DNA from: Methylococcales bacterium
GTDB taxonomy: Bacteria > Pseudomonadota > Gammaproteobacteria > Methylococcales > Methylomonadaceae
DNA: 64,000 bases
Assembly: GCA_028707085.1 (NCBI GenBank)
Contig: JAQTUW010000001.1
Location: forward strand, 57,030-121,029
Reading direction: 5' to 3'
Of this stretch, positions 6,112 to 31,559 are shown one piece after another. Each line of letters begins with the position of its first letter. The first letter of the stretch is position 1. The notes under the pieces are model-generated. The model did not search any database. It saw only the letters and a program-made list of their open reading frames with translations, and was not told the DNA's origin. The position numbers were made by a program, and so were the translations under genes.

Positions 6112-7602
6112 TCATTCCATTTCCATGGCTTTTTCAATGCGTTTGCACAGGGTCTTTAAAATCTTGATTCGGGCGAAATTCTTGTCGTTGGCTTCGACCA
6201 GCGTCCAGGGGGCGTTGTCGCAACTGGTTCTGTCCACCATGTCGCATACCGCGTGTTCGTATTCATCCCATTTTTCCCGGTTGCGCCAGTCTTCCGGGGT
6301 GATTTTAAAGTGCTTGAAGCCGGTGGCCTCCCGCGCCTGAAAGCGCGTCAATTGTTCGTCCTTGCTGATGGCCAGCCAGAATTTGATCAGCACTACGCCG
6401 TTGTCGGTCAACTGGGCTTCGAAGTCGTTGATTTCGTTATAGGCGCGCATCCAGTGCAGTTTGCTGCAGAAGCCCTCCACCCGCTCCACCAGCACCCGGC
6501 CATACCAGGAGCGGTCGAAAATGGTCAGCCGGCCTTTGCCGGGGATGTGGCGCCAGAAACGCCATAGATACGGCTGGGCGCGTTCTTCTTCGCTGGGCGC
6601 GGCTATGGGAATGATCTCGTAATAACGGGCGTCCAGAGCGCTGACGATCCGGCGGATGGCGCCGCCCTTGCCGGCGGCGTCGTTGCCTTCGAAAACCACG
6701 ATCACCGACAGGTTGGCGAATTTGCGGTGGCGGGTCAGTTCAGCCAGTTTGCCGTGATATTTTTCCAGTTCCGCCTCGAACGCCTCGTCCGGAATTGTTT
6801 GGGTCAGATCCAGGGTGTGCAGAATGTCCAGATTGTCGATGGGTGGCATGGGCAGCGGCGCATGCAGTTCGGTCGGCGGGGTTTCCGGTTCGTCCAGGCG
6901 TTTGCGGATGGCGTTCAGCAAGATTTCGCCCACCGTCAGGACTCGGTAGTGCGGATCGTGGCCCTCGACGATTAGCCACGGGGCTTCGGCTGTGCTGGTC
7001 TGACGGATGACCTGTTCATGCACAGCCCGGAATTTGTCGTACTGTTTATAGCGTTTCCAGTCGCGATCGGTGACCTGCCAGCGGGTGGCCGGGTTTTCCT
7101 CCAGCAGTTTAAGCCGCTTTTTCTGCTTGTCTTTGGATAGATGCAGCCAGAATTTAACCAGAATCACGCCTTCGTCGGTCAGCATTTTTTCAAAGCGCCG
7201 GGTCTGCTCCAGAGTCTGTTCCAGCTCGGCCTCCTTGGTGCGCCCGGCCACCCTGTCCAGTATCGGCCAGGTGTACCAGGAGCCGAGAAACAGTCCGATC
7301 CTGCCTTTGGGCGGCAGTACCCGCCAGAATCGCCACATCATGGGCCGTTCCCGTTCTTCGGCGCTGGGTTCGCCCATGCCGTGGGTTCTGATGAAACGGG
7401 CGTCCATCCATTTGTTCAGCAGATTGACGGTTTCGCCGCGCCCCGCGCCATCCAGACCGGCAACGATAACGATGACCGGATATTTGCCAGCCGCTGCCAA
7501 ATCCATTTGCGCCGTCAGTAGTGCTTCCCGTAGCGCGGGAACCTGCTGATCGTAGCTGGCTTTGTCTATTTTGTGTCCAAGTTCCGCTGATTCAAACATC
7601 AT
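6112..7602 (-). CDS. pap: Two-domain polyphosphate kinase 2 family protein (polyphosphate:AMP phosphotransferase type)
   Basis: The protein has two tandem PPK2 domains, each with a Walker-A-like motif (GLDGAGRGETV and GNDAAGKGGAI) and a repeated WRFWR..P.KG...F.RSWY block. Its 496-aa length matches class II PPK2/PAP. Confidence 0.8.
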   Translation of the reverse strand: MMFESAELGHKIDKASYDQQVPALREALLTAQMDLAAAGKYPVIVIVAGLDGAGRGETVNLLNKWMDARFIRTHGMGEPSAEERERPMMWRFWRVLPPKGRIGLFLGSWYTWPILDRVAGRTKEAELEQTLEQTRRFEKMLTDEGVILVKFWLHLSKDKQKKRLKLLEENPATRWQVTDRDWKRYKQYDKFRAVHEQVIRQTSTAEAPWLIVEGHDPHYRVLTVGEILLNAIRKRLDEPETPPTELHAPLPMPPIDNLDILHTLDLTQTIPDEAFEAELEKYHGKLAELTRHRKFANLSVIVVFEGNDAAGKGGAIRRIVSALDARYYEIIPIAAPSEEERAQPYLWRFWRHIPGKGRLTIFDRSWYGRVLVERVEGFCSKLHWMRAYNEINDFEAQLTDNGVVLIKFWLAISKDEQLTRFQAREATGFKHFKITPEDWRNREKWDEYEHAVCDMVDRTSCDNAPWTLVEANDKNFARIKILKTLCKRIEKAMEME

Positions 7603-7892
7603 TTGTCTATCCGCTGTAAAGTGTGGCGAGGCGTCATCGATTCGGCGCGAGGGTAAAAACCGGCATTCGGTCAGTGAATACTATAGACTCACAAAACTTT
7701 AGACAAGCCTTGCCTCAAGGCATAAAATCCCGACGACGGACACGCTCATCGCAGAATGTCCGTTGAGCCCTTTTGTCCGCCGGGTGCGGATATTGTGGAT
7801 TAAATAAGGAATTTGATGCGCGGAAACCATGCAAACAGCATTCGGCATTGTTTCACGCGCGGTCACTCATTAAAAAAATATAGGATATTGAT

Positions 7893-8318
7893 ATGACAAC
7901 CTGGGTCGTAGTAGCAGATAGCAGCAGAGCGCGGTTTTTCGTGCGCGAGAGTCACAGTGAATTTTTACAGGAGCTGGACGGCGTCGTTCACCCCGAAGGC
8001 AGAATGCACGGGCAGGATGAATTCACAGACCGTCCGGGCGGCATCGCCGGCAGTCATGACGAGGGCAATCACCGTTTCGAAGCGGAGACCAGCTTCAAAG
8101 AGCACGAAGCCGAGGTTTTTGCCGGACAAATCGCCGACAGACTGGAGCATGGCCGGGTCAATCATGATTACCGCAAGCTTATCCTGGTCGCGCCGCCGGC
8201 CTTTTTAGGCGTGTTGCGGCAAGTGCTGAACAAGCATATTCTGGAACTGGTGAGCGGTTCCATGGATAAAAATCTGGTCGGCGAGGACGCTGAGGAAATT
8301 CGTAAACATATTCTCTGA
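7893..8318 (+). CDS. Host-attachment-protein family protein
   Basis: The N-terminus TWVVVADSSRARFF and the 141-aa size match this family as I recall it. Confidence 0.55.
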   Translation: MTTWVVVADSSRARFFVRESHSEFLQELDGVVHPEGRMHGQDEFTDRPGGIAGSHDEGNHRFEAETSFKEHEAEVFAGQIADRLEHGRVNHDYRKLILVAPPAFLGVLRQVLNKHILELVSGSMDKNLVGEDAEEIRKHIL

Positions 8319-8411
8319 TCCGTTCCAGACCGAGAGGATGAAAAATCGGCGAGCTGCCGCCCTTCCTGGAGGCGGAGGGCAGCTTGCCGGCATAGATCGC
8401 GACGGTCGCGG

Positions 8412-9188
8412 TCAATGATCGTAGCGGATTTTATTATCGGTCGATTTATTGAATACCGTGCCTAGCATATGCTGCTCTTTGAGCAGCAGGGCGGTTTCTT
8501 TCAGGTCATTGATATTGGTCTGGCCTTCGTCAATCACCAGCAGAACGCAATCCACAAGTGGAGCGAAACCCAGCGCGTCGTCCTGATCGAGGATGGGGGG
8601 CAGGTCAAAAATAATGATTCTGTCCGGATAGCGGTTTTTCAGCTCGCTGACCAGTCGCAGCATTTTCGGGGCGTGCAGCATTTCGGTGGAATTGAGCATG
8701 GGCTGTTTGCCGGCGGGCAGGATCACCAGCCGCTCGATTCCGGGGTTGATGAGTATGCTGTCGAGTTCGGTATTGTGCAGCAGATAATCGCTTAAACCGG
8801 CTTCAACATGCAGGCCGAATAATTTATGAATAGTGGGATTCTTGATGTTGGCGTCAACCAGCAGGGCCGTGCGGTTGAGTTCCATGGCGATGCTGATGGC
8901 CAGATTGGCGGCTGTCAGGCTGTTGCCCGTGCCGTGACTGGTGCTGGTGATGGCCAGCGTGTTCCAGTTGAGCGGATCCATGGTCTGCAGGCAGCGAGTG
9001 CGCAGCATGCGGTAGGATTCCAGCCACTTGCCGGGCTGATGAGCCGATATGAGTCTGTTGGCTTTCAGGGTGCTTTCCTTGACGGCCGACACCCGGGTCT
9101 GGCTGTAAACAATGTTGATGACGTCCGGAATGCCGCCGGCAGCCGTCAACGGACTGTTTGCTTCCTCAACTGTCTGATTCGAGTTCAT
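8412..9188 (-). CDS. BY-kinase-like (CpsD/CapB / PEP-CTERM-locus tyrosine autokinase-like) P-loop protein with degenerate Walker A and A'
   Basis: ITSTSHGTGNSLTAANLAISIA...LLVDANIKNP...IIIFDLPPIL aligns with the BY-kinase motifs Walker A, A' and B. It is the last gene of the export operon. Confidence 0.7.
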   Translation of the reverse strand: MNSNQTVEEANSPLTAAGGIPDVINIVYSQTRVSAVKESTLKANRLISAHQPGKWLESYRMLRTRCLQTMDPLNWNTLAITSTSHGTGNSLTAANLAISIAMELNRTALLVDANIKNPTIHKLFGLHVEAGLSDYLLHNTELDSILINPGIERLVILPAGKQPMLNSTEMLHAPKMLRLVSELKNRYPDRIIIFDLPPILDQDDALGFAPLVDCVLLVIDEGQTNINDLKETALLLKEQHMLGTVFNKSTDNKIRYDH

Positions 9189-9204
9189 GTATTTTCCCGT
9201 TTAA

Positions 9205-10950
9205 TTAGAAAGTGCCGATGATGCGCAGCAGCTTGTACCAGAATACGTCCAGCGGCATGACGATAAAGTGAAAGGCTATGACTGCGGCGATACTGCCGGT
9301 CAAACCGATAAGCAGCAAGGTTTTCCGGTGGTTTTTGCGATTTTCGCTTTCCTTGTGGTTTTCCAGATAAGGAATGGTGGCCAGTGGCGGTACACCCAGC
9401 AACTGGGTGATGGTTCGTTCGGAATGGATATTGGAATCCAGTACTTCCGCCATGGCCAGCGCGCCGAAACCGCCGGCGATCGCCACCACAAAACCCAGTA
9501 TCAGAATGACCATGCGGTTCGGGCTATACGCTTCCAGGGGTTCCTGTGGCGGGTCGATCAGGGTGAAACGTTCGCCTTTCTTCTGAATTTCCAGTTGCTG
9601 GGCAATCTGGGCTTCCATTTCCCGGGCGTCGACGCCACGGTAGCGGTTATTGGTGTTGTCCAGTTCCTGCAGCATATCCATGTATTCTTTTTCGATTAGC
9701 GGCGCTTCGCGCATGTTTTTGCGTAGCTTCTCCAGTTTCTCGTTCAGCATGGTGCGGCTTTGCGCCAGGGAGCGGATATCGCTGTCAACGGCCGCCAACT
9801 GGGTCTGGGTGGAAATGTAGGCCGGATTGTCCGGTTTGATTTCGTTATTGGTAAATTCCTGGGTTTTGGTGTCGAGAATGGCCTGTTGCAGGGCGGTGAT
9901 TTCCTTTTGCAGCTTTTGAACGTCAGGATGCTTGTCGGAATATTGTTTTAACAGCGAGGTATAAGCGCTTTTTTTCTCCGTCAGTTCGGCATTTAGACTG
10001 GCTATGTCGGCGCTGGAGCCGATCTGTTTCTGCAAGGATTCGATTTCATGCTTGATTTTCACCAGATCCGGATGGGTTTCGGAATAACGGGAAATCAGAG
10101 AGGGATACTGGGCCTGCAATTCCTTGAGCCGGTCATGCATATCGAACACCTTTTGGCCGACTGCATTGGTGGCGGAGGTGTTGGGGTCGATCTGGGCGAG
10201 TTGGCCTTCCAGATAAAACTTGTGTTCTGCGGCGGAGCGTTCCTGGCTGTCCAGCAGCATCAACTGGTTGTTGATGGTGGTGATTTCCTGCTGATTGATG
10301 GAGTTGGCTTCCGGCAGGCGATTGAGGTTGTTTTTCTTGAACTCGGCGACCTTGGCCTGAATTTCCTGGATGCGTTCCTTCAGGTGGCGTTTTTCTTCAC
10401 TGAGGAAGATGGCGGCGTTGTCTGCCGATTCGGTACGGGATTTGATGTTTTCCTTGAGAAAAAGCGAAACCAGTTCGTTTGCGACTTTTTGGGCCAGCGA
10501 AGGGGAAGGGCTATCGAAGGCCAGTATAAAGGCGATGGTGGCTTTGGTGGGCACGCCGTTACGCGGGTCGATCACGTCCGCGCTGACGGTTTCCACCTTG
10601 ATGCTTTTGCGCATTTTATCCAGAATACGTTCTTCGGTCTTGGTTTTCAGATCCGCGGCGTAAAGATCGTATTTTTTGATGATTTCCATCAGATTGACGC
10701 GGGACATGATGCGCTGGCTGATGATCTGGATACGCTGGTCGGCGAAGGTGGTGACCGTGGAGCGCACCAGTTCCGAAGGAATTTCCTGTTCCTCGATCAG
10801 AATGGTGGCTGTCGAGCGAAAAACCGAAGGCAGCACCACGGAAAGAATGATGCTCAGTAAAAAGATAGCCAGAAAAGGGATAATGACGAATTTTTTGCGT
10901 CTTTTGATTATTTTTAAATAATCTTTAATATCGGGTGCTTGATTTTCCAC
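9205..10950 (-). CDS. Polysaccharide chain-length determinant (Wzz/PCP family, PEP-CTERM-locus type)
   Basis: The N-terminus is IKDYLKIIKRRKKFVIIPFLAIFLLSI followed by a TM segment. A long coiled-coil periplasmic region follows, and a second TM lies near the C-terminus (MVILILGFVVAIAGGFGALAMA). Confidence 0.75.
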   Translation of the reverse strand: MENQAPDIKDYLKIIKRRKKFVIIPFLAIFLLSIILSVVLPSVFRSTATILIEEQEIPSELVRSTVTTFADQRIQIISQRIMSRVNLMEIIKKYDLYAADLKTKTEERILDKMRKSIKVETVSADVIDPRNGVPTKATIAFILAFDSPSPSLAQKVANELVSLFLKENIKSRTESADNAAIFLSEEKRHLKERIQEIQAKVAEFKKNNLNRLPEANSINQQEITTINNQLMLLDSQERSAAEHKFYLEGQLAQIDPNTSATNAVGQKVFDMHDRLKELQAQYPSLISRYSETHPDLVKIKHEIESLQKQIGSSADIASLNAELTEKKSAYTSLLKQYSDKHPDVQKLQKEITALQQAILDTKTQEFTNNEIKPDNPAYISTQTQLAAVDSDIRSLAQSRTMLNEKLEKLRKNMREAPLIEKEYMDMLQELDNTNNRYRGVDAREMEAQIAQQLEIQKKGERFTLIDPPQEPLEAYSPNRMVILILGFVVAIAGGFGALAMAEVLDSNIHSERTITQLLGVPPLATIPYLENHKESENRKNHRKTLLLIGLTGSIAAVIAFHFIVMPLDVFWYKLLRIIGTF

Positions 10951-22870: not shown

Positions 22871-23688
22871 GGGGGCTTTCGCTGAATGCCGTGAACAGGC
22901 GGGCCGCTAATACTGGGCCTGTAAGGGGAAGAGGTAAACTCCGGTTCTCCTGAAGCATAAATTTTAAGGTCTGGTTTTCCATGTGATCAATCACGAAAGC
23001 GGTAATGAGCGGATAGCATGGCATGAGCATTCTATGCAGGCAATGGTGTAATGCCTGACGGTATGGGCTTGGCTGCTATAAAAGGTTTCACTATATTAGA
23101 GCATCAGTCTGATTGTCATAAAAAAATTATGGCCTGTGCAAAAAGTCGGCGGTAAACATCGATGTATAAGCTTCGACTGGATAGTTGCAATGGCTGTCCT
23201 TACTGTTTTGCGCCAAATTTGCGAGATTCAGACATTGAATAGGCTAGCTGTTCGAGGGAGGATGGGCGCTGGCTGGAAAGATAATGAGAGATATGCATTT
23301 TGGCCGATTATGCTATGGGTATCAAGTAATGTGCCGTGCGATTTCCATTAATGTAATCAGGCTATTTCTTAACAGCCGGGCGCATTCTTTTTTAGAAATG
23401 CGCATCAACAGAACAACTGTTTGTATTCTATATTTATGCCTAATTCCGGCCTGTCGTTTTAATTGGACAGGCAGTCGAGCGCAGAACGCTTTATGAAGTA
23501 ACATAATTACTTTCAATTATATCCTGATTATCCTTGCTTTAGCAATGGATAAGCTGCATTCAATAGCGATCACCTGCGTCATAGTACCTTCGGGCATTAA
23601 ATCGGTCAACTGCGGGTTGCGAGATAATTGCCTTGCAGTGACGGATTTTTTAGAACAGTATTATCACTTTCAAAATGAGTGTTCAGCC

Positions 23689-24993
23689 ATGTTGTCAACC
23701 CGTTATTCCATCTATAGGCAAATTCTGACACGCCTGCTTTGGGGCTGGTTTTTTCTGTGTATCGTTTTGGGAGCCGGGATTCTATGGCTGGAAATGCAGC
23801 GGGTGGGGAAATTGGTTCATCAACTGGCGCTAACTGAATCATCGGTTCTGAGCGGAGAGGATGCGCAAAGCTTTCTGGCCGGCAATGCGCAGTCCACGGC
23901 GCATTTATCCCGTCTGGCGGAGCAACTGGTGGACAAGCATTTTTTGATGGTGGAGCTGTTCGACCGGAACAAGGACATGAAGCTGGAGGTCATGCGCCAG
24001 GGGCATGCCGATGCGCAGCATCTGATCGAGGCTTACCGGCGTCAGTTTCCCAGACCCGATGGTTTTTCGCACGATCTGCATTTTATGGACGGGCAGTTGT
24101 GGATGGTGATCGTCATGCCTTTGCAGGGTGTCGGGCAGATTCAGCCTATCGGCTATTTCGAGGGCGTGTATCAGGTCGATCAGGCGACTTTTAACGATAT
24201 CAGGCGCAATGTCCTGCGCACCCTGATACTGGTGGGGATGGGCATTTCCTTTACCATTTTGCTCATGTATCCAGTCGTGCTGGCGCTGATCAAAGGCGGT
24301 ATGACGCTATCGGCCCGGTTGTTGCAGGGCAATCTGGAGCTGCTGAATGTACTGGGTTGCGCCATTGCAGAGCGCGATTCCGAAACCAATAGCCATAATT
24401 ACCGGGTATGCTATTACGCATTGAAGATGGGCGAGACTTTGGGGCTAAGTGGCCAGGCTCAGCGCAATTTGCTGGCAGGGGCTTTTTTGCATGATGTCGG
24501 CAAAATCGGTATTCGCGATCCCATACTGTTAAAACCGGGCAAACTGACCGATGAAGAATTCGAAATAATGAAAACCCATGTCTCGCTGGGGGTGGCGATC
24601 ATTAAAAAATCGAGTTGGCTGAGCGGTGCGCGCGAGGTGGTGGAGTTTCATCACGAAAAATACGACGGCAGCGGTTACCTGCAAGGTTTAAAAGGCGACG
24701 CCATACCGCTCAATGCCCGGATATTCGCCATTGTGGATGTGTTTGACGCCTTGACATCCGCCCGCGCCTATAAGGGTTCCTGGTCAGTTTCCGACGCGAT
24801 TTCTGTGCTGGAAAATGGCGCGGGCAGCCATTTCGATCCGAAGCTGGTGCGGGTTTTTGCTGGTCTGGCGGCGCAGCTTTATGAATTCATAGGCGAACTG
24901 GAGCCGAATCAGCTTGAAGCCGTGATGCGCCCCATCATAGGCCCTTATTTTTTAACCCTGCCGGAGCCGGAGGGCGCGGCAGGGCAGCCTTGA
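23689..24993 (+). CDS. Membrane-anchored HD-GYP domain protein (c-di-GMP phosphodiesterase family)
   Basis: Two TM segments flank a putative periplasmic sensor region. They are followed by FLHDVGKIGIRDPILLKPGKLTDEEFEIMKTHV and HHEKYDGSGYLQGLKG, which are the HD and GYP signatures. The start was moved to ATG 23689. Confidence 0.85.
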   Translation: MLSTRYSIYRQILTRLLWGWFFLCIVLGAGILWLEMQRVGKLVHQLALTESSVLSGEDAQSFLAGNAQSTAHLSRLAEQLVDKHFLMVELFDRNKDMKLEVMRQGHADAQHLIEAYRRQFPRPDGFSHDLHFMDGQLWMVIVMPLQGVGQIQPIGYFEGVYQVDQATFNDIRRNVLRTLILVGMGISFTILLMYPVVLALIKGGMTLSARLLQGNLELLNVLGCAIAERDSETNSHNYRVCYYALKMGETLGLSGQAQRNLLAGAFLHDVGKIGIRDPILLKPGKLTDEEFEIMKTHVSLGVAIIKKSSWLSGAREVVEFHHEKYDGSGYLQGLKGDAIPLNARIFAIVDVFDALTSARAYKGSWSVSDAISVLENGAGSHFDPKLVRVFAGLAAQLYEFIGELEPNQLEAVMRPIIGPYFLTLPEPEGAAGQP

Positions 24994-25534
24994 GCCGGCG
25001 GTGGGCGTCGATAAAATTTAATAAGGGCTGAATGGCGGCCGGACTGATCCGACACGAATAACCGGAATTAATTTTTTGTCGCGGGAATGGTTCGGCGGCT
25101 AGGGTATTGCTGTCGGGTACGCGCCAACTGCTCAAGAAAGTAGGTGTCGTAATGCCAGCCAATACGCGGCGGGGGCGGTGTGCGGGGGGTTGGTATTGAA
25201 TTTATCAAATTGTCATGTAGGGTCAGTGGTTGAAAATTACCCTGACGGTCAATGCAGTCTTGCCATAGGCTGTTTTAAAATTGACCCGGAGGGCGGATGG
25301 AAAAAAGTTTGCTAATGCTAAATTGGATTAATCGGTGAAGACCTGCGGTTCGGTCTGGCTGCTATAAATTGTGACGGGCGGTATCCGTGAAAAAATCAGC
25401 GCCGACCGTCTGGCAGTCTGTATCTTGCTTTGGCGCGAATTATAGTCCTAAATGTGATTTTGTAAAGCATTACCTGAAACTTGACCGGCCGCTCCATCGG
25501 GCTTGCGCCTGCTTTAACGGCCTTGACGGTGGTT

Positions 25535-26266
25535 TTAGCTTTCGGGAGAAGCCGCAAACCACATCTGATAAATGCTGAGCAATATTTGCAAGCCCATTGA
25601 AAATCCCATTAAGGCTCCGCTATAAATAACCACGTAAGCAAATGAAGGCGTAGACTTGGTTATAAACCATGATACGACATCCAGCAGCATCGCGGCGAAA
25701 GGAATGATCACAGCTATTCTTTTGACATAAATATTCATGTCACAAAGCAAAAAGATTTTTCCGATAAAAAATAAAATGAACGCAATGCCAAATAGATGAA
25801 TATGCGACAAGCGCACTAAAGTGGGGATTGTGGCGCCGCCGGCATGGGCGACCTCGGATACTGTCGCGTAATGGGTAAGATCGGGTAATGAGGGGTTAAC
25901 GCTAGGGGTGTGGCACAAAACACAGTCACGATTCAGTATCGGGGCCACTTTTTCGATATATTCGGGTTCATTCGCGCCGTGTTGTATCCATTGCAGAATA
26001 ACATCCTGGTCGCTTTTAAATTTCAGGTTGGGTTCCATAATGCCTTTAATCGCCGTACCCAGGCGAGTCTGCCTGGGGGAGCCGTGATAGTGGATGACAA
26101 CATCTTCAACCGAAAGTCCGGCTTTGCCATCCAGTCCCTGAAAAGTGTAATACAAATTGGTCAGAGCCGCGATATAACCCAGCCCTATGGTAAGCAGGAA
26201 TACGGTGTTTAAAATTCTTTCGCTGACGGAAATGTCTTTAAAGCGGGTATGGCGAACTTTGAGCAT
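25535..26266 (-). CDS. Polytopic membrane protein with one CxxCH haem-c motif in an extracytoplasmic loop
   Basis: TM1 is ILNTVFLLTIGLGYIAALTNLYY. A loop of about 110 aa contains RDCVLCHTPS, and three further TM helices follow. It lies 111 nt downstream of the cytochrome-porin gene on the same strand. Confidence 0.6.
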   Translation of the reverse strand: MLKVRHTRFKDISVSERILNTVFLLTIGLGYIAALTNLYYTFQGLDGKAGLSVEDVVIHYHGSPRQTRLGTAIKGIMEPNLKFKSDQDVILQWIQHGANEPEYIEKVAPILNRDCVLCHTPSVNPSLPDLTHYATVSEVAHAGGATIPTLVRLSHIHLFGIAFILFFIGKIFLLCDMNIYVKRIAVIIPFAAMLLDVVSWFITKSTPSFAYVVIYSGALMGFSMGLQILLSIYQMWFAASPES

Positions 26267-26318
26267 AATGAGGTCTGAGCGATGATTATGGAAGCGTTAA
26301 GTTTCTGTAAGCGGCGAC

Positions 26319-26349
26319 GGGCAAGGCATTCTGCCTTGCCCGCATTTTT
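26319..26349. other. Intercistronic GC-rich stem-loop between the two haem-protein genes
   Basis: GGGCAAGGC (26319-26327) pairs with GCCTTGCCC (26333-26341) around a 5-nt loop. The T-run lies on the plus-strand side, so it is not a classical terminator for the minus-strand operon. Confidence 0.4.
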
Positions 26350-26376
26350 GCGATAACCGGTTCCGGTTGGTTCTGA

Positions 26377-27732
26377 CTAGAACGCCAGTGCGCTATTGAC
26401 CATGAAGGTGTTGTTATCCTGAGCGCCGGCGCTGGCCCCATTGAATTGAGTGTAGGCAATATATTGTAGGTAAGTGCGTAAATTCATCAGGTATGCATAT
26501 TCATGCGATTTACCGAACGGTACATAATCCAGTTCCACAGTGTAGGATTCGCTGTTTGGCCGGGCTATGGCGTTACCCGAATAAAGCGCGGCGTCCGTTG
26601 AGCCGGTCGTTTTGTAATAGGCGAGGTTAATCCCATAGGTTTGTTCGAAGGTATACGTGGCGTTGAATCTAAATGTGGTCAGATAAGTGTTGCCGCTGGA
26701 ATTAACGCCACCGGTAAGCCGGCTTGCCGATAAATTCTGATCTTCATAGATATAAGTCGTTTTGGCTTCGAAGATATGCCGGGTATTACCCATGTATTGA
26801 TAGGTGGCGTCGACCCCGACATCGGTGTATTTGTCCATGCCGCTACTGGTGACGCGTCCAGGCAGCGATATATCGGCGATCATGCCGTACTGGCCAACTG
26901 ATAAGTAATGCCCTTGCCAGTCTTGTTGCAACGCCACGCGCCAGTATGGTGCGGGGCTGCCCACGGTCAACTGGCTGGAGCCGGTGATGCCGAATGCGTT
27001 CTGGGCATTGCCGGAAAACGAACCGTAAGCGCCGGCTTCCAGATATAGAAGATTGTTAATCATGGTATAAGCCGTCGCGCCGCCCACCAGATGAGAAAGC
27101 CCGCCGTCAATCAATGTGGCGGCGCCGGGGAGAGGTTCGATCGAGTTGCCGGTATAAGGATATCCCCAGGCCGGCGTGGAATTCCATAAGTCCTGTACCG
27201 TAGGATTGTTGTTTAACGAGATGCCGTAGGTTACTGGCATGTCGAACATTTCCAATTGGTCGGCAAAGCGGACATCGCTACCGCCCAGACTGAGCTGATC
27301 CGCATAGCCGTCATAATCGATGTGGCTGTATGCGCCAACCTTGCCGTAAATTCGGCCTGCATAAAACAGCGATGCTTCGTCGAAAGTGAAGTTGTTGTTT
27401 TTATTGTAACCCGGCAGCAGGGTGCCGGGGGCCTGATCTGCCTGGGTATTGGTGAATGAGCCCGTTACCGTCGCGCTTAATGCAGGCATTTTGGCTGCAA
27501 TGCCGCTGCCGCCGCCCGCAGTGTAACCGTTAAGTTTAAAGTCGCGACCAAGAGGCGTCAGGTTAGGCCCGTAAGCCTGGGTGTGGCAGACGCTGCAGGC
27601 TTGACCTGTTTGCCTGGAAAAACTAGGTAGCGCCTGTGCTGTTGGGGTTGTCAGCACCATGACTGATGCGACTGTCAGGAGCAATGCCAGGACATAATTC
27701 AAATTGTTGCTGCGCTTAACTGCATATTGCAT
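26377..27732 (-). CDS. Outer-membrane beta-barrel protein with a single N-terminal CxxCH (fused monohaem cytochrome-porin architecture)
   Basis: The signal peptide ends ...TPTAQA. It is followed by LPSFSRQTGQACSVCHTQAYGPNLTPLGRDFKLNGYT, which contains the only two Cys in the protein. About 380 aa of alternating Tyr/Gly/Thr-rich beta-strand-like sequence then ends in a terminal aromatic (...NSALAF). Confidence 0.6.
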   Translation of the reverse strand: MQYAVKRSNNLNYVLALLLTVASVMVLTTPTAQALPSFSRQTGQACSVCHTQAYGPNLTPLGRDFKLNGYTAGGGSGIAAKMPALSATVTGSFTNTQADQAPGTLLPGYNKNNNFTFDEASLFYAGRIYGKVGAYSHIDYDGYADQLSLGGSDVRFADQLEMFDMPVTYGISLNNNPTVQDLWNSTPAWGYPYTGNSIEPLPGAATLIDGGLSHLVGGATAYTMINNLLYLEAGAYGSFSGNAQNAFGITGSSQLTVGSPAPYWRVALQQDWQGHYLSVGQYGMIADISLPGRVTSSGMDKYTDVGVDATYQYMGNTRHIFEAKTTYIYEDQNLSASRLTGGVNSSGNTYLTTFRFNATYTFEQTYGINLAYYKTTGSTDAALYSGNAIARPNSESYTVELDYVPFGKSHEYAYLMNLRTYLQYIAYTQFNGASAGAQDNNTFMVNSALAF

Positions 27733-28028
27733 AAAACATTCCGGTTTTGTTGAGAATTGCCGCCACGCATTGGCGGATAAAGGTTATTTTGATGTATATT
27801 AATAATCTAATTGTGAAATTAGATTCATTTTTCCCGTAAGCAAATAGTATAAAAAATATGTTTACGGCAACATATATTTGCAAATTTATATGACAATAAT
27901 GTTAATGTTTGATTAATATTTTATTTGGTAACCTTTCGGCTGGCTTGCAATGGACTTTGGTATTAAACGCTAGTTGAAACGGATTGTCATAATAGGGATG
28001 TGTTTATAATATTTATCCTTTTTAATCA

Positions 28029-28346
28029 TTAACGCCAATACGCATTCCCCCAGATGTCGTATTTTGTTTCGGCGCAAGTTTTGTTTGCATTTGCCGACAC
28101 AAGGCGATATGAACCACCAAGTTTCATTGTTCCTGCCACCTTGCTGTGTTTGTCACAAAGGGGAATAACATACCGACCGCAATCGATTATGCTGACCTTT
28201 TGCACAAGCGCACCTACAGTCGCGACTTCAAAGCATGATTTCTCCGCACAACAAGTCGCTTTTTCACAGCTATATTTTTCCCAATGAGCGAGCCAGCTTT
28301 TGCATTTGCATCCGGCAAACCGACCATTAATATTTTTTACCTTCAC
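28029..28346 (-). CDS. Small Cys-rich protein (9 Cys in 105 aa), putative Zn-binding, family unknown
   Basis: The spacing GCKCKSWLAHWEKYSCEKATCCAEKSC...DCGRYVIPLCDKH suggests zinc knuckles of treble-clef or HNH-like type. The gene sits in a visibly AT-rich islet. Confidence 0.5.
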   Translation of the reverse strand: MKVKNINGRFAGCKCKSWLAHWEKYSCEKATCCAEKSCFEVATVGALVQKVSIIDCGRYVIPLCDKHSKVAGTMKLGGSYRLVSANANKTCAETKYDIWGNAYWR

Positions 28347-28652
28347 ATCTCTCCTTTCAGCTATTTATTAGGCCGGTCTAATGACTAAATTTCCTATTAT
28401 GACTTATGGTGAGAAAATGGAATACGGTACTTGCGCGGTGTCGTGGTTAAACGGGCCACGTTACCAGGTAATCCCAGCTCGATATTATTTCATTAGGATA
28501 TCTCGTGGCGGCCGTAACGGTTGGGCCATGCTCTGCCGACTGACTTCGTTCAGATGAGGTACCGCACTAATCAGGATTCTTAAAGCATGAATCGCGCCAA
28601 TATATAGATAGCTGATAATCAAATATTTTTATTTGAATTGAAAATATAAAAA

Positions 28653-28687
28653 CATACTATATTTGCAGTGACTGCAAATATAGTATG
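28653..28687. repeat. Perfect 35-bp palindrome (17-bp arms, 1-nt centre)
   Basis: CATACTATATTTGCAGT g ACTGCAAATATAGTATG was read directly. It lies in the divergent intergenic region between 28346(-) and 28928(+). Confidence 0.9.
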
Positions 28688-28840
28688 CAAGAATGGTATG
28701 CAATTGCCGGGCGGCGGCCTGAGTCAAAAAATAAAATCACTAAATAACCATAATATAATATTGGTAATTATTTCTATATATAAGCCGGAATGGGCGGCAG
28801 TGGCCTGAGAGATGCGAGACGGACAGTTCGCTTAGTGGAT

Positions 28841-28895
28841 GTCGTAGCGCGAATCCTGATAGAATCTTCGGACGCGGCTATCGACCTCTGTTTTT
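28841..28895 (+). terminator. Terminator-like hairpin plus T-run in the 5' leader of the DUF1624 gene (possible attenuator)
   Basis: GTCGTAGCGCG...CGCGGCTATCGAC forms an imperfect stem with two bulges. It is followed by CTCTGTTTTT and ends about 33 nt before ATG 28928. Confidence 0.3.
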
Positions 28896-28927
28896 GATGT
28901 CCCGATAAAGAAATCCTTCCGGATCGG

Positions 28928-30139
28928 ATGGGCAGGCTAAATGGCATACAGGATCATTACGCTTTGAATACCGAATCATCATCAGGAAGACTTGCTTCCA
29001 TAGACATTCTGCGCGGACTGGTCATGGCCTTAATGACGCTGGATCATACCCGCGATTTTTTCAGCAACGCCCATTTCAGCCTGACCAATCTGGACAAAAC
29101 CACGGTGGCGTTGTTTTTAACCCGCTGGATTACTCATTTCTGCGCGGCGGTGTTTGTTTTTCTGGCCGGCTCCAGCGCCTATTTGTGGGTGTCGCGCCGT
29201 GGGCCCGGCGCGCCCATCAGTTCGTTTTTGTGCAAGCGCGGCCTGTTGCTGCTGGTTTTGACCACTACCGTTGAAGCCTGGGCGTGGAATTTTCGGCACG
29301 ACTTTCAGCATCTCAACGGCGGCGTGCTTTGGGCGATAGGTTGGTCCATGATCGTCATGGCCGGTCTGGTCAAACTACCGCTGGGCTGGATTGTGGGCGT
29401 CGGAAGCTCGATGATAGTTCTGCATAACGCATTCGACCCGCTGGAATCCGCAAGCCTGGGCGTATTCGGCCCCTTGTGGGCGGTGCTGCATACCGGCCAG
29501 GCGCTCAAGCTGGGCGGCGGCTGGGAGCTTAACCCCTATTATCCGTTGATCCCTTGGATAGGGGTGATGGCTGTGGGTTATGGTTTTGGCAAATGGATGA
29601 GCATCAGTCGGTTGCGCACCCGGCGGCGTTTGCTGGCGCTGGGCTGTTCCCTGATAGCCGCGTTTTTCCTGCTGCGCCTGAGCAATCTCTATGGCGACCC
29701 AAAGTCCTGGCAAGTCTTTCCTGATCCGGTCTTTACGGTTTTATCCTTTATCAATTGCCAAAAATATCCGCCGTCGTTGCTGTATTTATTAATGACGCTA
29801 GGCCCGGCGATCGTATTTCTGGCTTTGGTCGAGGGCGGCGCGTTAAATTGGCTGGGATTTTTGCGCGTATTCGGCAAAACGCCGCTGTTTTTCTATCTTT
29901 TTCATTTATACCTGATCCATCTCGCGGCGCTTGCCGTTGCGGCGTTCGACAACGGGCCGGTTTCGGCGTTGGCCGGCGGCGGCATCTGGTTGCCGGAATT
30001 GCCCAAAGAATACGGATACGGCTTGCCGACAGTTTATCTGTTATGGTTGCTGATGTTGCTGATGCTGTACCCGATTTGCCGTGGATTCGAAACCCTAAAG
30101 GCAAACCGGCCGCATTGGGGTTGGCTTAAATATCTGTAA
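28928..30139 (+). CDS. DUF1624 / heparan-alpha-glucosaminide N-acetyltransferase-like polytopic membrane protein
   Basis: RLASIDILRGLVMALMTLDHTRDFF is the family's N-terminal signature. The protein has about 10 hydrophobic segments. Confidence 0.7.
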   Translation: MGRLNGIQDHYALNTESSSGRLASIDILRGLVMALMTLDHTRDFFSNAHFSLTNLDKTTVALFLTRWITHFCAAVFVFLAGSSAYLWVSRRGPGAPISSFLCKRGLLLLVLTTTVEAWAWNFRHDFQHLNGGVLWAIGWSMIVMAGLVKLPLGWIVGVGSSMIVLHNAFDPLESASLGVFGPLWAVLHTGQALKLGGGWELNPYYPLIPWIGVMAVGYGFGKWMSISRLRTRRRLLALGCSLIAAFFLLRLSNLYGDPKSWQVFPDPVFTVLSFINCQKYPPSLLYLLMTLGPAIVFLALVEGGALNWLGFLRVFGKTPLFFYLFHLYLIHLAALAVAAFDNGPVSALAGGGIWLPELPKEYGYGLPTVYLLWLLMLLMLYPICRGFETLKANRPHWGWLKYL

Positions 30140-30437: not shown

Positions 30438-30818
30438 ATGATGAACACATTATTCCGTTCCCTGCTTTTGTTTTTGATGTTTACCGGTCTTGCGGCCGCT
30501 GGCGAACAGGCCTTTACCCAGGCCGCTTTCGATAAGCTGCAACAGCAGGGCCAACCCATACTGGTTTCCATTCATGCCGACTGGTGTCCGGTCTGCCGCG
30601 CCCAGGCGCCGATTATCGGCAAATTGCTTAAGGAAGGCGATTTTCAGAAAATAAACGCCCTGCGGGTGGATTTCGACCAGCAAAAGCCCGTGGTGCACGC
30701 CTTCAGGGCCAGTACCCAGAGTACACTGATTGTCTTCAAGGGCGGTAAAGAAGTGGGGCGCAGCGTGGGCGACACCAGCGAGGCGGGCATAGCCAGTCTG
30801 CTTAAAAAAGCATTGTGA
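30438..30818 (+). CDS. Secreted thioredoxin-fold protein
   Basis: It has a signal peptide and the active site HADWCPVCRAQ (CxxC). Confidence 0.8.
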   Translation: MMNTLFRSLLLFLMFTGLAAAGEQAFTQAAFDKLQQQGQPILVSIHADWCPVCRAQAPIIGKLLKEGDFQKINALRVDFDQQKPVVHAFRASTQSTLIVFKGGKEVGRSVGDTSEAGIASLLKKAL

Positions 30819-30830
30819 CGAGGTAGCCCC

Positions 30831-31559
30831 ATGTTTGCCGAAATAGCTGTTTACGGGCTCAGCATCGTAGCCGGAGCCTTATCTTCCCTGTCGCCCTGTG
30901 TGCTGCCCTTGCTGCCCATCCTGGCCGGAGCTGCGCTGAACACCCATCGCCTGGGGCTATACGCTTTGGCCGCCGGTCTGGCGCTGTCGTTCACCATCAT
31001 CGGTTTGCTGCTGGCGACCATGGGCAGCGTACTGGGCCTGGATCAGACCCTGCTGCGCCATATCGGAGCCGTGCTGCTGATATTGTTCGGCGCCATATTG
31101 ATGTCGGAACGCCTGCAGCATCTGTTTGCCGAGGCGACAGCCGGCCTGGGTGGCGCGGGACAGTCGTTGCTGGAGCGGGTTTCCGCCGACACCTTGCAGG
31201 GCCAGTTTTTTCTGGGGCTGATACTGGGCGTGGTGTGGAGTCCCTGCGTCGGGCCGACGCTGGGGGCGGCCATCGTCATGGCCAGCCAGGGCGGCCATCT
31301 TTTTCACACCGCATTGGTCATGCTGCTGTTTGGCGTCGGCGCGACTTTGCCGCTGATCCTGCTGGGTACGCTGTCGCAGCAGGTCGATAAAAACAACAAG
31401 GCCAGGCTGCTGCTGACCGGCAAAACCGGCAAGATGGTGCTGGGCGGACTGCTGGCCGCTGTGGGTCTTTTGATCCTCGGCGGGCTGGACAAAGTCTTTG
31501 AAGCCTGGGTGTTGAATCATTTCCCGGAATGGCTAATCCGCCTGACCACGGCGGTCTGA
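30831..31559 (+). CDS. Cytochrome c biogenesis CcdA/DsbD-type transmembrane thiol-disulfide transporter
   Basis: The SLSPCVLPLLP and VWSPCVGPTLG motifs (conserved Cys in TM1 and TM4) are present. It is adjacent to the thioredoxin gene. Confidence 0.8.
   Translation: MFAEIAVYGLSIVAGALSSLSPCVLPLLPILAGAALNTHRLGLYALAAGLALSFTIIGLLLATMGSVLGLDQTLLRHIGAVLLILFGAILMSERLQHLFAEATAGLGGAGQSLLERVSADTLQGQFFLGLILGVVWSPCVGPTLGAAIVMASQGGHLFHTALVMLLFGVGATLPLILLGTLSQQVDKNNKARLLLTGKTGKMVLGGLLAAVGLLILGGLDKVFEAWVLNHFPEWLIRLTTAV

Follow-up and report, generated by a model that had tools for sequence, protein, structure and literature searches.

A Cyc2-family cytochrome-porin gene and a conserved downstream gene for a predicted inner-membrane cytochrome in Methylococcales: candidate ends of an extracellular electron-exchange route

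In the rus operon of Acidithiobacillus ferrooxidans, which has the order cyc2-cyc1-orf-coxBACD-rus, the gene for the outer-membrane cytochrome Cyc2 is followed by one for a membrane-associated c-type cytochrome. Members of the Cyc2 family have been recognised as proteins of at least 365 residues with an N-terminal CXXCH, the motif AxPxFAR[Q/K][T/Y] upstream of it, and then a PxL sequence and a 16-strand porin of the OprO/OprP type; the upstream motif was called unique to the family, about 20% identity is the level reported between Cyc2 clusters, and a structural match to OprP was reported for Cyc2 as well (PMC8406198). The Cyc2 of Mariprofundus ferrooxydans PV-1, whose redox potential is +208 mV, is an Fe2+ oxidase (PMC8406198). 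We have analysed a stretch of 64,000 nucleotides from a Methylococcales bacterium (GenBank assembly GCA_028707085.1, contig JAQTUW010000001.1, positions 57,030 to 121,029; hereafter the window), in which a gene of the Cyc2 type (gene 1) is followed by a gene for a membrane protein with a CxxCH of its own (gene 2, product P2). With moderate confidence, we favour the reading that gene 1 encodes a Cyc2 and P2 is an inner-membrane cytochrome, and that the two may form the ends of one electron-exchange route that leans inward. The two genes are these:

26377..27732 (including the stop codon), minus strand: gene 1, cyc2-family, encoding a predicted fused monohaem cytochrome-porin of 451 residues (open reading frame list)
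25535..26266, minus strand: gene 2, encoding P2, a predicted inner-membrane protein of 243 residues in Pfam family PF27139, Aq_1264_TM (open reading frame list; precomputed Pfam match)

A 2019 study reported Cyc2-like genes in Methylobacter (PMC6344600), a "cluster 2" cyc2 has been listed for Methylobacter genomes (PMC12810054) and for Allocrenothrix (PMC13641074), and Methylobacter sp. S3L5C was found to have two cyc2 copies, the expression of which goes up with dissolved organic matter (PMC12211021). Gene 1 by itself is not new, as Cyc2 homologs have been described from Methylobacter, Crenothrix and Allocrenothrix (PMC6344600, PMC12211021, PMC12810054, PMC13641074). Because the accessions could not be matched, we can only infer that the window family is the same as that of the published methanotroph cyc2 genes. 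A downstream membrane cytochrome goes unmentioned in the searchable text of the published methanotroph cyc2 papers, a full-text search for Cyc2 N-terminal sequence strings found no paper, and the conserved cyc2-P2 pairing appears to be undescribed so far.

Both open reading frames (ORFs) lie on the minus strand with the lengths, 451 and 243 residues, given to them by an earlier reading made from the letters of the window alone (the sequence-only reading); the spacer between them, for which a distance of 111 nucleotides had been given, is 110 nucleotides long. The gene 1 product is 100% identical to a protein annotated "cytochrome C" in a Methylococcales metagenome-assembled genome (MAG), and the gene 2 product is likewise 100% identical to a protein encoded on the same MAG contig. 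We confirmed that the two-gene CxxCH pair is real and goes beyond chance, because gene 1 and gene 2 are the only ORFs of at least 90 residues with a CxxCH in the 64-kb window, the CxxCH is invariant in the homologs of both, and 55 independent genome loci show the same adjacency. The window was also searched for a further cyc2, a further P2 gene and a soluble cytochrome c, and contains none of them.

The features of gene 1 that bear on its family membership were obtained by inspection, by alignment of homologs and from an AlphaFold 2 (AF2) model:

27631..27732, minus strand: predicted signal peptide, residues 1-34 (by inspection: basic n-region, hydrophobic core, AQA cleavage motif before Leu35)
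27607..27633, minus strand: Cyc2 signature motif ALPSFSRQT, residues 34-42, which matches the published AxPxFAR[Q/K][T/Y] bar one residue
27583..27597, minus strand: putative haem c attachment site CSVCH, residues 46-50 (C46, C49 and H50 invariant in 27 of 27 homologs)
26380..27483, minus strand: predicted beta-barrel porin domain, residues 84-451, with 16 predicted strands and a C-terminal Phe (AF2, DSSP, Foldseek)

The signal-like N-terminus, the position of CSVCH about 12 residues into the mature chain, the presence of no Cys other than Cys46 and Cys49, and the C-terminal Phe (...ALAF) had all been pointed out in the sequence-only reading and are correct; the AF2 model places a helix at residues 11-27, inside the signal segment. 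The one deviation from the strict Cyc2 consensus is Ser39, where the consensus has Ala. When 27 gene 1 homologs were aligned, P36, S37, R40, Q41, T42 and G43 were invariant, and the stretch P-S-F-[S/A/T]-R-Q-T-G plus the CxxCH was invariant or nearly so; 6 of these 27 close homologs have PSFARQT exactly, and the displayed homologs from Nitrosospira, Electronema and Competibacteraceae likewise have an exact PSFARQ[T/L/M]. PNL is found at residues 56-58, five residues past His50 (four in PV-1), with L58 invariant. The haem peptide of Cyc2 PV-1 detected by mass spectrometry is QTGAACLSCHFQTFPALNAFGR (Table S1 of PMC8406198), and its counterpart in the window is QTGQACSVCHTQAYGPNLTPLGR. The two peptides have equal tryptic boundaries and an equal spacing from RQT to the first Cys, and that of gene 1 has one extra residue before PxL.

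Comparison of the gene 1 family profile with a profile of Zetaproteobacterial Cyc2 by hhalign gave a match with a probability of 98.9% and an E-value of 1.8e-17, in which the strongest similarity falls exactly on the segment with the haem site and the motif; in a global alignment the two profiles shared 20% identity over 352 columns (probability 99.3%). The best 150 matches of the representative search were too close to gene 1 to include validated Cyc2, and the Zetaproteobacterial set was instead retrieved via concatenated PV-1 peptides (29 sequences aligned, including those of M. ferrinatatus and M. aestuarium). The AF2 model of gene 1, with a predicted template modelling score (pTM) of 0.69 and a predicted local distance difference test score (pLDDT) mostly of 65-87 over the barrel, has 16 strands by DSSP, within the range of 16 to 18 that the sequence-only reading had expected. 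Its Foldseek matches are the 16-strand porins OmpT, Omp32, OprP (2o4v) and OmpF (E-values from 6e-9 to 1e-6, probability 1.00), with an E-value of 3.8e-8 for OprP. Length, N-terminal signal, lone CXXCH, PxL, 16-strand barrel and homology to validated Cyc2 are all found in gene 1. Based on the profile-profile match, the match to the validated PV-1 haem peptide and the 16-strand porin model, we conclude from these sequence comparisons that gene 1 is a genuine member of the Cyc2 fused cytochrome-porin family; the sequence-only reading, which went no further than a Cyc2-like architecture, was right, and the homology itself is now established. The product would carry covalently bound haem and would reside in the outer membrane.

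One could envisage that gene 1 encodes an ordinary anion/phosphate-type porin, free of haem and with a fortuitous CxxCH, given that its barrel resembles general and phosphate porins and that searches of gene 1 and P2, together with their family profiles, against Pfam, NCBIfam and PDB sequences returned no significant match (the Pfam set searched excluded PF27139, and the assignment of P2 to that family is a precomputed annotation). This explanation is very improbable in our judgement: the CxxCH and the Cyc2 motif are invariant or nearly so in the 27 homologs and are kept in relatives of other phyla with 43% identity, the best similarity to the Cyc2 profile lies exactly at the haem segment, and the protein has only these two Cys.

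The gene 1 family is large, comprising more than 5,700 homologs in a word-indexed search and 3,075 clusters at 50% identity in an exhaustive representative search (E ≤ 1e-3). Homologs found in the genome scan belong to Methylobacter, including M. luteus and M. tundripaludum SV96 (65% identity in the latter), Methylovulum, Crenothrix, Methylomicrobium and Methylomagnum, and several copies per genome occur in these taxa, as reported for S3L5C. More distant homologs, with 43-45% identity, come from the ammonia oxidiser Nitrosospira, the cable bacterium Candidatus Electronema, a Thermodesulfobacteriota MAG and Competibacteraceae (loci L070-L075, L077, L078 and L080).

Compared with Cyc2 of M. ferrooxydans PV-1, Cyc2 of A. 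ferrooxidans and Cyt572 of Leptospirillum (FeGenie clusters 1-3), the window protein has in common the signal peptide, the lone N-terminal CxxCH, the AxPxF(A/S)RQT sequence three residues before the first Cys, the PxL, and an OprP-like porin of about 400 residues and 16 strands that ends in Phe. It differs in the Ser for Ala in the strict motif and in the additional residue between CxxCH and PxL, its host is an aerobic methanotroph and not a known iron oxidiser, and the neighbouring gene encodes a predicted cytochrome with four transmembrane (TM) helices, whereas elsewhere the neighbours are cyc1 or lipoprotein genes. The MtrAB, MtoAB and PioAB systems likewise provide an electron route across the outer membrane by means of a porin and c-type haem; however, those systems use a separate decahaem protein in a 26-strand barrel, while gene 1 would combine a single haem with 16 strands in one polypeptide.

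Two features of P2 stand out in the alignments of its family:

25910..25924, minus strand: putative haem c attachment site CVLCH, residues 115-119 of P2 (invariant in all three P2-family alignments, A2, A4 and A5)
25787..25807, minus strand: SHIHLFG motif of P2, residues 154-160, where TM2 meets the periplasm (possible axial ligands of haem or of a metal)

The precomputed match to PF27139 (Aq_1264_TM) holds for a protein identical to P2 and for all 120 homologs listed; 1129 homologs were obtained in a homolog search, and a full-text literature search on aq_1264 or PF27139 found no paper. AF2 predicts helices at residues 14-42, 147-174, 179-205 and 207-237, with which the hydropathy peaks concur, and since the N-terminus is basic (five Lys or Arg residues), the positive-inside rule would place the loop of about 105 residues between the first two helices (43-146) in the periplasm. 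The description of gene 2 as a four-TM protein with CVLCH in an extracytoplasmic loop, which the sequence-only reading had offered, holds on these grounds. PSL comes after the haem site at the five-residue spacing also seen in gene 1, and a third Cys is located at residue 175. The CxxCH is kept in 20 of 20 P2 homologs and in 76 of 76 full-length metagenome relatives, and SHxHLFG is present in 75 of these 76; conservation of the CxxCH, a point on which the sequence-only reading had made its proposal depend, is complete for both genes (27/27 for gene 1 and 20/20 for gene 2). In a comparison that included both orthologs and paralogs of P2 (about 33% identity), the invariant positions were Tyr60-x-Gly62, Gly75-x-Met77, Cys115-x-x-Cys118-His119, Ser154-His155-x-His157-Leu158, Gly160 and Asp196-x-x-Ser199-Trp200.

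The similarities of P2 to described cytochromes are weak. Matches to the PccH family of Pfam, all below threshold, were obtained with 8 of 34 P2-family members (best E-value 1.2e-4), the PccH structure (PDB 4rlr) gave a sub-threshold E-value of 0.43, and further weak matches below threshold were to Cytochrom_C (class I) and Haem_bd. PccH of Geobacter sulfurreducens (PDB 4RLR) is a monohaem periplasmic cytochrome that the cell requires to take up electrons from electrodes (PMC13591261). The haem stretch of the P2 family, Y..xIxPIφxxxCxxCH, gives the best of these sub-threshold matches to PccH, which is not significant for the window P2 itself. Both proteins are predicted or known to be monohaem and to face the periplasm; PccH is soluble, whereas P2 would be anchored by four helices and has the extra conserved motifs YxG, SHxHLFG and DxxSW. 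We read P2, from its sequence, as a monohaem c-type cytochrome anchored in the inner membrane, whose haem domain, about 105 residues long and on the periplasmic side, would bind haem at CVLCH. Either Met77 or one of His155 and His157 could provide the sixth haem ligand.

The invariant HxH at the membrane edge and the invariant intramembrane Asp196 could also be taken as signs of an assembly factor, in which case P2 would not carry electrons but would handle haem or copper for an oxidase or for Cyc2 by way of its conserved His-x-His, Met and Asp residues. The housekeeping-like distribution of P2 and its position beside haem-copper oxidase genes in two unrelated arrangements (see below) are in agreement with such a role. 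Against it, the invariant CxxCH followed by PxL is the mark of covalent haem c, the weak similarities of P2 point to electron-transfer cytochromes (PccH and class I), and searches of Pfam and NCBIfam gave no match of P2 to any known assembly factor family; we regard the assembly role as improbable.

The genomic context of gene 1 homologs was examined in 80 loci, 71 of the methanotroph type and nine of an outgroup. In 55 of the 71 methanotroph-type loci, the gene next downstream of cyc2, on the same strand and after a gap of 14-414 nucleotides, encodes an ortholog of P2 (62-89% identity). The answer to the question of co-occurrence that the sequence-only reading had raised is therefore a divided one, in that this linkage is frequent, but each gene is also found without the other. 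At least 12 distinct flanking contexts surround the cyc2-P2 pair and its order and strand remain constant throughout, which suggests that the pair is retained or moves as a unit. Paralogs of the P2 family were also detected beside other cyc2 copies, in convergent orientation at 4 loci, downstream on the same strand at 2 and upstream at 1. In two loci (L009 and L011, about 7370-9900) the cyc2-P2 pair is followed by two P2-family paralogs on the opposite strand, so that three members of the family stand in a row. In Crenothrix polyspora (L164 and L165, 3449-4778), the cyc2 that precedes an intact P2 gene is spread over two reading frames and is either a pseudogene or the product of an assembly error. 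P2 in Methylococcales is kept downstream of cyc2 preferentially, not obligatorily.

Further electron-transfer genes join the pair in some loci. A gene for a secreted class I cytochrome c of about 100 residues with a signal peptide lies directly upstream of cyc2-P2 in eight loci (L036, L043, L045-L048, L051 and L053); that of L043 (5074-5385), for example, matches Pfam Cytochrome_CBB3 with an E-value of 2.6e-12. The arrangement gives a three-gene set that would span the outer membrane, the periplasm and the inner membrane. Four Methylomicrobium loci (L062, L064, L065 and L066; for example, L064, 5956-13359) have on one strand the order cyc2-P2-coxB-coxA-coxC, then an ORF of 150 residues and a cytochrome c gene, and the coxB product joins COX2 to a cytochrome c. 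Independently of these loci, P2 also adjoins haem-copper oxidase genes in L168-L170, where a P2 ortholog with no cyc2 nearby is divergent from a 47-residue ORF, COX2, COX1 and cytochrome c. A general link between P2 and haem-copper oxidases was considered and rejected, as the clear cases are only those of Methylomicrobium and L168-L170, plus a short COX3-like fragment in L083.

The main rival to a joint route holds that the link is positional, with P2 being a widespread housekeeping cytochrome, serving, for example, a terminal oxidase, upstream of which cyc2 landed or stayed, the two genes having separate work and separate transcription. Several observations weigh against our reading, and most of them are what this explanation would lead one to expect. 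Orthologs of P2 with 81-84% identity occur with no cyc2 nearby, either beside exbBD or divergent from a COX2-COX1 cluster, and a single context, isoamylase-uvrC, is found both with the pair (L166 and L027) and with P2 but no cyc2 (L171-L173). Of 80 metagenome loci of the wider P2 clade, only about 5 have a cyc2-like gene next to P2, and the P2 gene of this clade often follows priA. Conversely, P2 is missing beside cyc2 in 7 methanotroph-type loci and in the whole outgroup of nine, in which neither P2 nor another CxxCH gene adjoins the cyc2 homolog, and P2-type genes sought beside Zetaproteobacterial cyc2 were not present, the neighbours there being haem-less lipoprotein genes. The oxidase and soluble-cytochrome additions are confined to few lineages. 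Mean identity to the window proteins is 80% for P2 and 58% for Cyc2, and this much stronger conservation of P2 would fit an independent housekeeping role. A hairpin of -15 kcal/mol or lower is present in 46 of 52 orthologous cyc2-P2 spacers, compared with 7% of shuffled sequences, and in 19 of the 52 loci it is followed by a terminator-like U-rich tail. Lastly, model confidence is low in the haem segment of gene 1 (pLDDT below 50, residues 26-82) and in P2 as a whole (pLDDT 49). On the other side, the pair is found in at least 12 unrelated contexts with constant order and strand, extra cyc2 copies adjoin P2-family paralogs in three other arrangements, and accessory cytochrome c and oxidase genes join the pair. 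We consider a purely positional link doubtful as the full explanation, yet it retains substantial weight.

The transcription signals that we identified around the two genes are the following:

26318..26342, minus strand: intergenic GC-rich hairpin (GGGCAAGGCAG...CUGCCUUGCCC type) of 11-12 bp, a likely attenuator or 3'-end stabiliser
27869..27896, minus strand: sigma-70-like promoter candidate TTGTCA-16-TATGTT, about 137 nucleotides upstream of the cyc2 start (9 of 12 positions agree with the consensus in a scan)

The hairpin is the GC-rich stem-loop that had been noticed in the spacer from the letters alone. The whole window spacer folds at -28 kcal/mol (z = -2.2), and on the sense strand no U-tract follows the hairpin, the T-run being on the opposite strand. 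Because the hairpin is conserved in the spacer, cyc2 is probably expressed in excess of P2 or separately from it, and P2 presumably has its own promoter in genomes where it stands alone. Of the term operon, used for the pair in the sequence-only reading, same-strand adjacency is upheld; co-transcription is not, given the frequency of spacer hairpins and U-rich tails and the occurrence of P2 by itself elsewhere. The promoter candidate sits in an AT-rich intergenic region of 1.2 kb in which the number of such candidates is not above shuffled expectation, making it a weak one. A near-consensus sigma-70 site (TTTACA-16-TATAAT, 11 of 12 matches) was also seen at 25439-25466 on the minus strand, just past the P2 stop codon; it faces the 3' end of the convergent HD-GYP gene, and an antisense or small transcript is possible there.

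The rus operon offers the closest parallel in gene order, since in both cases an outer-membrane Cyc2 is followed by a membrane-associated c-type cytochrome, and in the Methylomicrobium relatives a cytochrome c oxidase cluster also continues on the same strand. In contrast to the dihaem (c4) Cyc1, P2 is predicted to be monohaem with four TM helices and is unrelated to it, and the full cluster does not exist at the window: no cox gene lies within 15 kb around the pair, and a CxxCH scan of ORFs of at least 90 residues found no further such ORF and no multihaem ORF in the window, where cox and cupredoxin genes were not specifically searched for throughout.

In the route that we favour, the Cyc2 porin would let small soluble redox species, Fe2+ or the quinone-like groups of dissolved organic or humic matter, reach the haem, and a single extracellular electron-exchange route would have Cyc2 as its outer-membrane end and P2 as its inner-membrane end. 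With about 105 residues, the tethered P2 domain would hardly span the periplasm by itself; electrons would most likely pass between Cyc2 and P2 via the periplasmic cytochrome c pool, and a shuttle of this kind is suggested by the eight loci that encode a soluble cytochrome c just upstream. The minimal path from outer to inner membrane put forward in the sequence-only reading keeps its two membrane ends as predictions, whereas its minimal character is lost, given that neither gene strictly needs the other and that a shuttle is indicated. Contact or electron transfer between Cyc2 and P2 is an assumption of this scheme, as is the direction of flow. We lean towards inward flow, from an external reductant to Cyc2, periplasmic cytochrome c, P2 and a terminal oxidase, because related loci have, in addition, either a soluble cytochrome c gene upstream of the pair or caa3-type oxidase genes after it, which is reminiscent of the rus operon. 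A bolder version, which we put forward only tentatively, is that P2 is the first dedicated inner-membrane partner of Cyc2 to be identified and that, with a periplasmic cytochrome c, the pair would constitute a full two-membrane route by which electrons from Fe(II) or reduced humic substances enter respiration, or by which electrons are discharged outward when O2 runs out.

Outward flow as the main function would mean that under O2 limitation electrons pass via P2 and the periplasm to Cyc2, where Fe(III) complexes or humic quinones are reduced. Nothing in the sequences fixes the direction, authors of methanotroph papers have raised this possibility (PMC6344600, PMC13641074), and Cyc2-bearing Methylobacter MAGs were obtained from anoxic hypolimnia (PMC6344600). 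The characterised Cyc2 proteins, however, are Fe(II) oxidases with a rather high potential of +208 mV (PMC8406198), the related loci tie the pair to an O2-reducing caa3 oxidase and not to quinol dehydrogenases of the CymA, ImcH or CbcL type, and P2 has no recognisable quinol site. Outward flow is thus rather unlikely in our view.

The surroundings of the pair in the window include several other genes. The HD-GYP (cyclic di-GMP phosphodiesterase-type) gene that flanks it (23545-24993, plus strand) is of a type that also flanks a P2 paralog in Methylobacter (L001), and an HGSNAT-like membrane gene (28928-30139, plus strand) has its equivalent as an upstream neighbour of cyc2 in the Methylomicrobium loci. 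A secreted thioredoxin (WCPVC; 30438-30818, plus strand) is followed by a DsbD_TM/CcdA-like membrane protein (30831-31559, plus strand); the two, encoded on the strand opposite to cyc2 and about 2.7 kb from its start, make up a thiol-reducing pair of a type that serves cytochrome c maturation. We considered this thioredoxin/CcdA-like pair as a part of the system and rejected it, as it is not conserved near cyc2-P2 in other loci. A Cys-rich ORF of 105 residues with a GTG start (28029-28346, minus strand), located in the AT-rich region upstream of cyc2, matched nothing in Pfam, has no homolog in the loci retrieved and is probably outside the unit. The GC content dips to 0.49-0.51 at window positions 24000-30000, compared with 0.53-0.59 on either side, and this dip, together with the many flanking contexts of the pair, hints that the region around it has moved between genomes.

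Even for model iron oxidisers, the path that electrons take between Cyc2 and the inner membrane is hypothetical at present, and the role of Cyc2 in methanotrophs matters for the consumption of methane in lakes and wetlands that are poor in oxygen and rich in iron and humic substances. The conserved and constrained P2 beside cyc2, with the optional soluble cytochrome c and caa3 modules, provides concrete candidates for such a path. If the link proves to be only positional, the locus would amount to one more Cyc2 homolog of a catalogued type beside a member of the widespread, unstudied Aq_1264_TM family. If a two-membrane uptake route is true, the extra electrons gained by aerobic methanotrophs could possibly spare reductant for methane monooxygenase.

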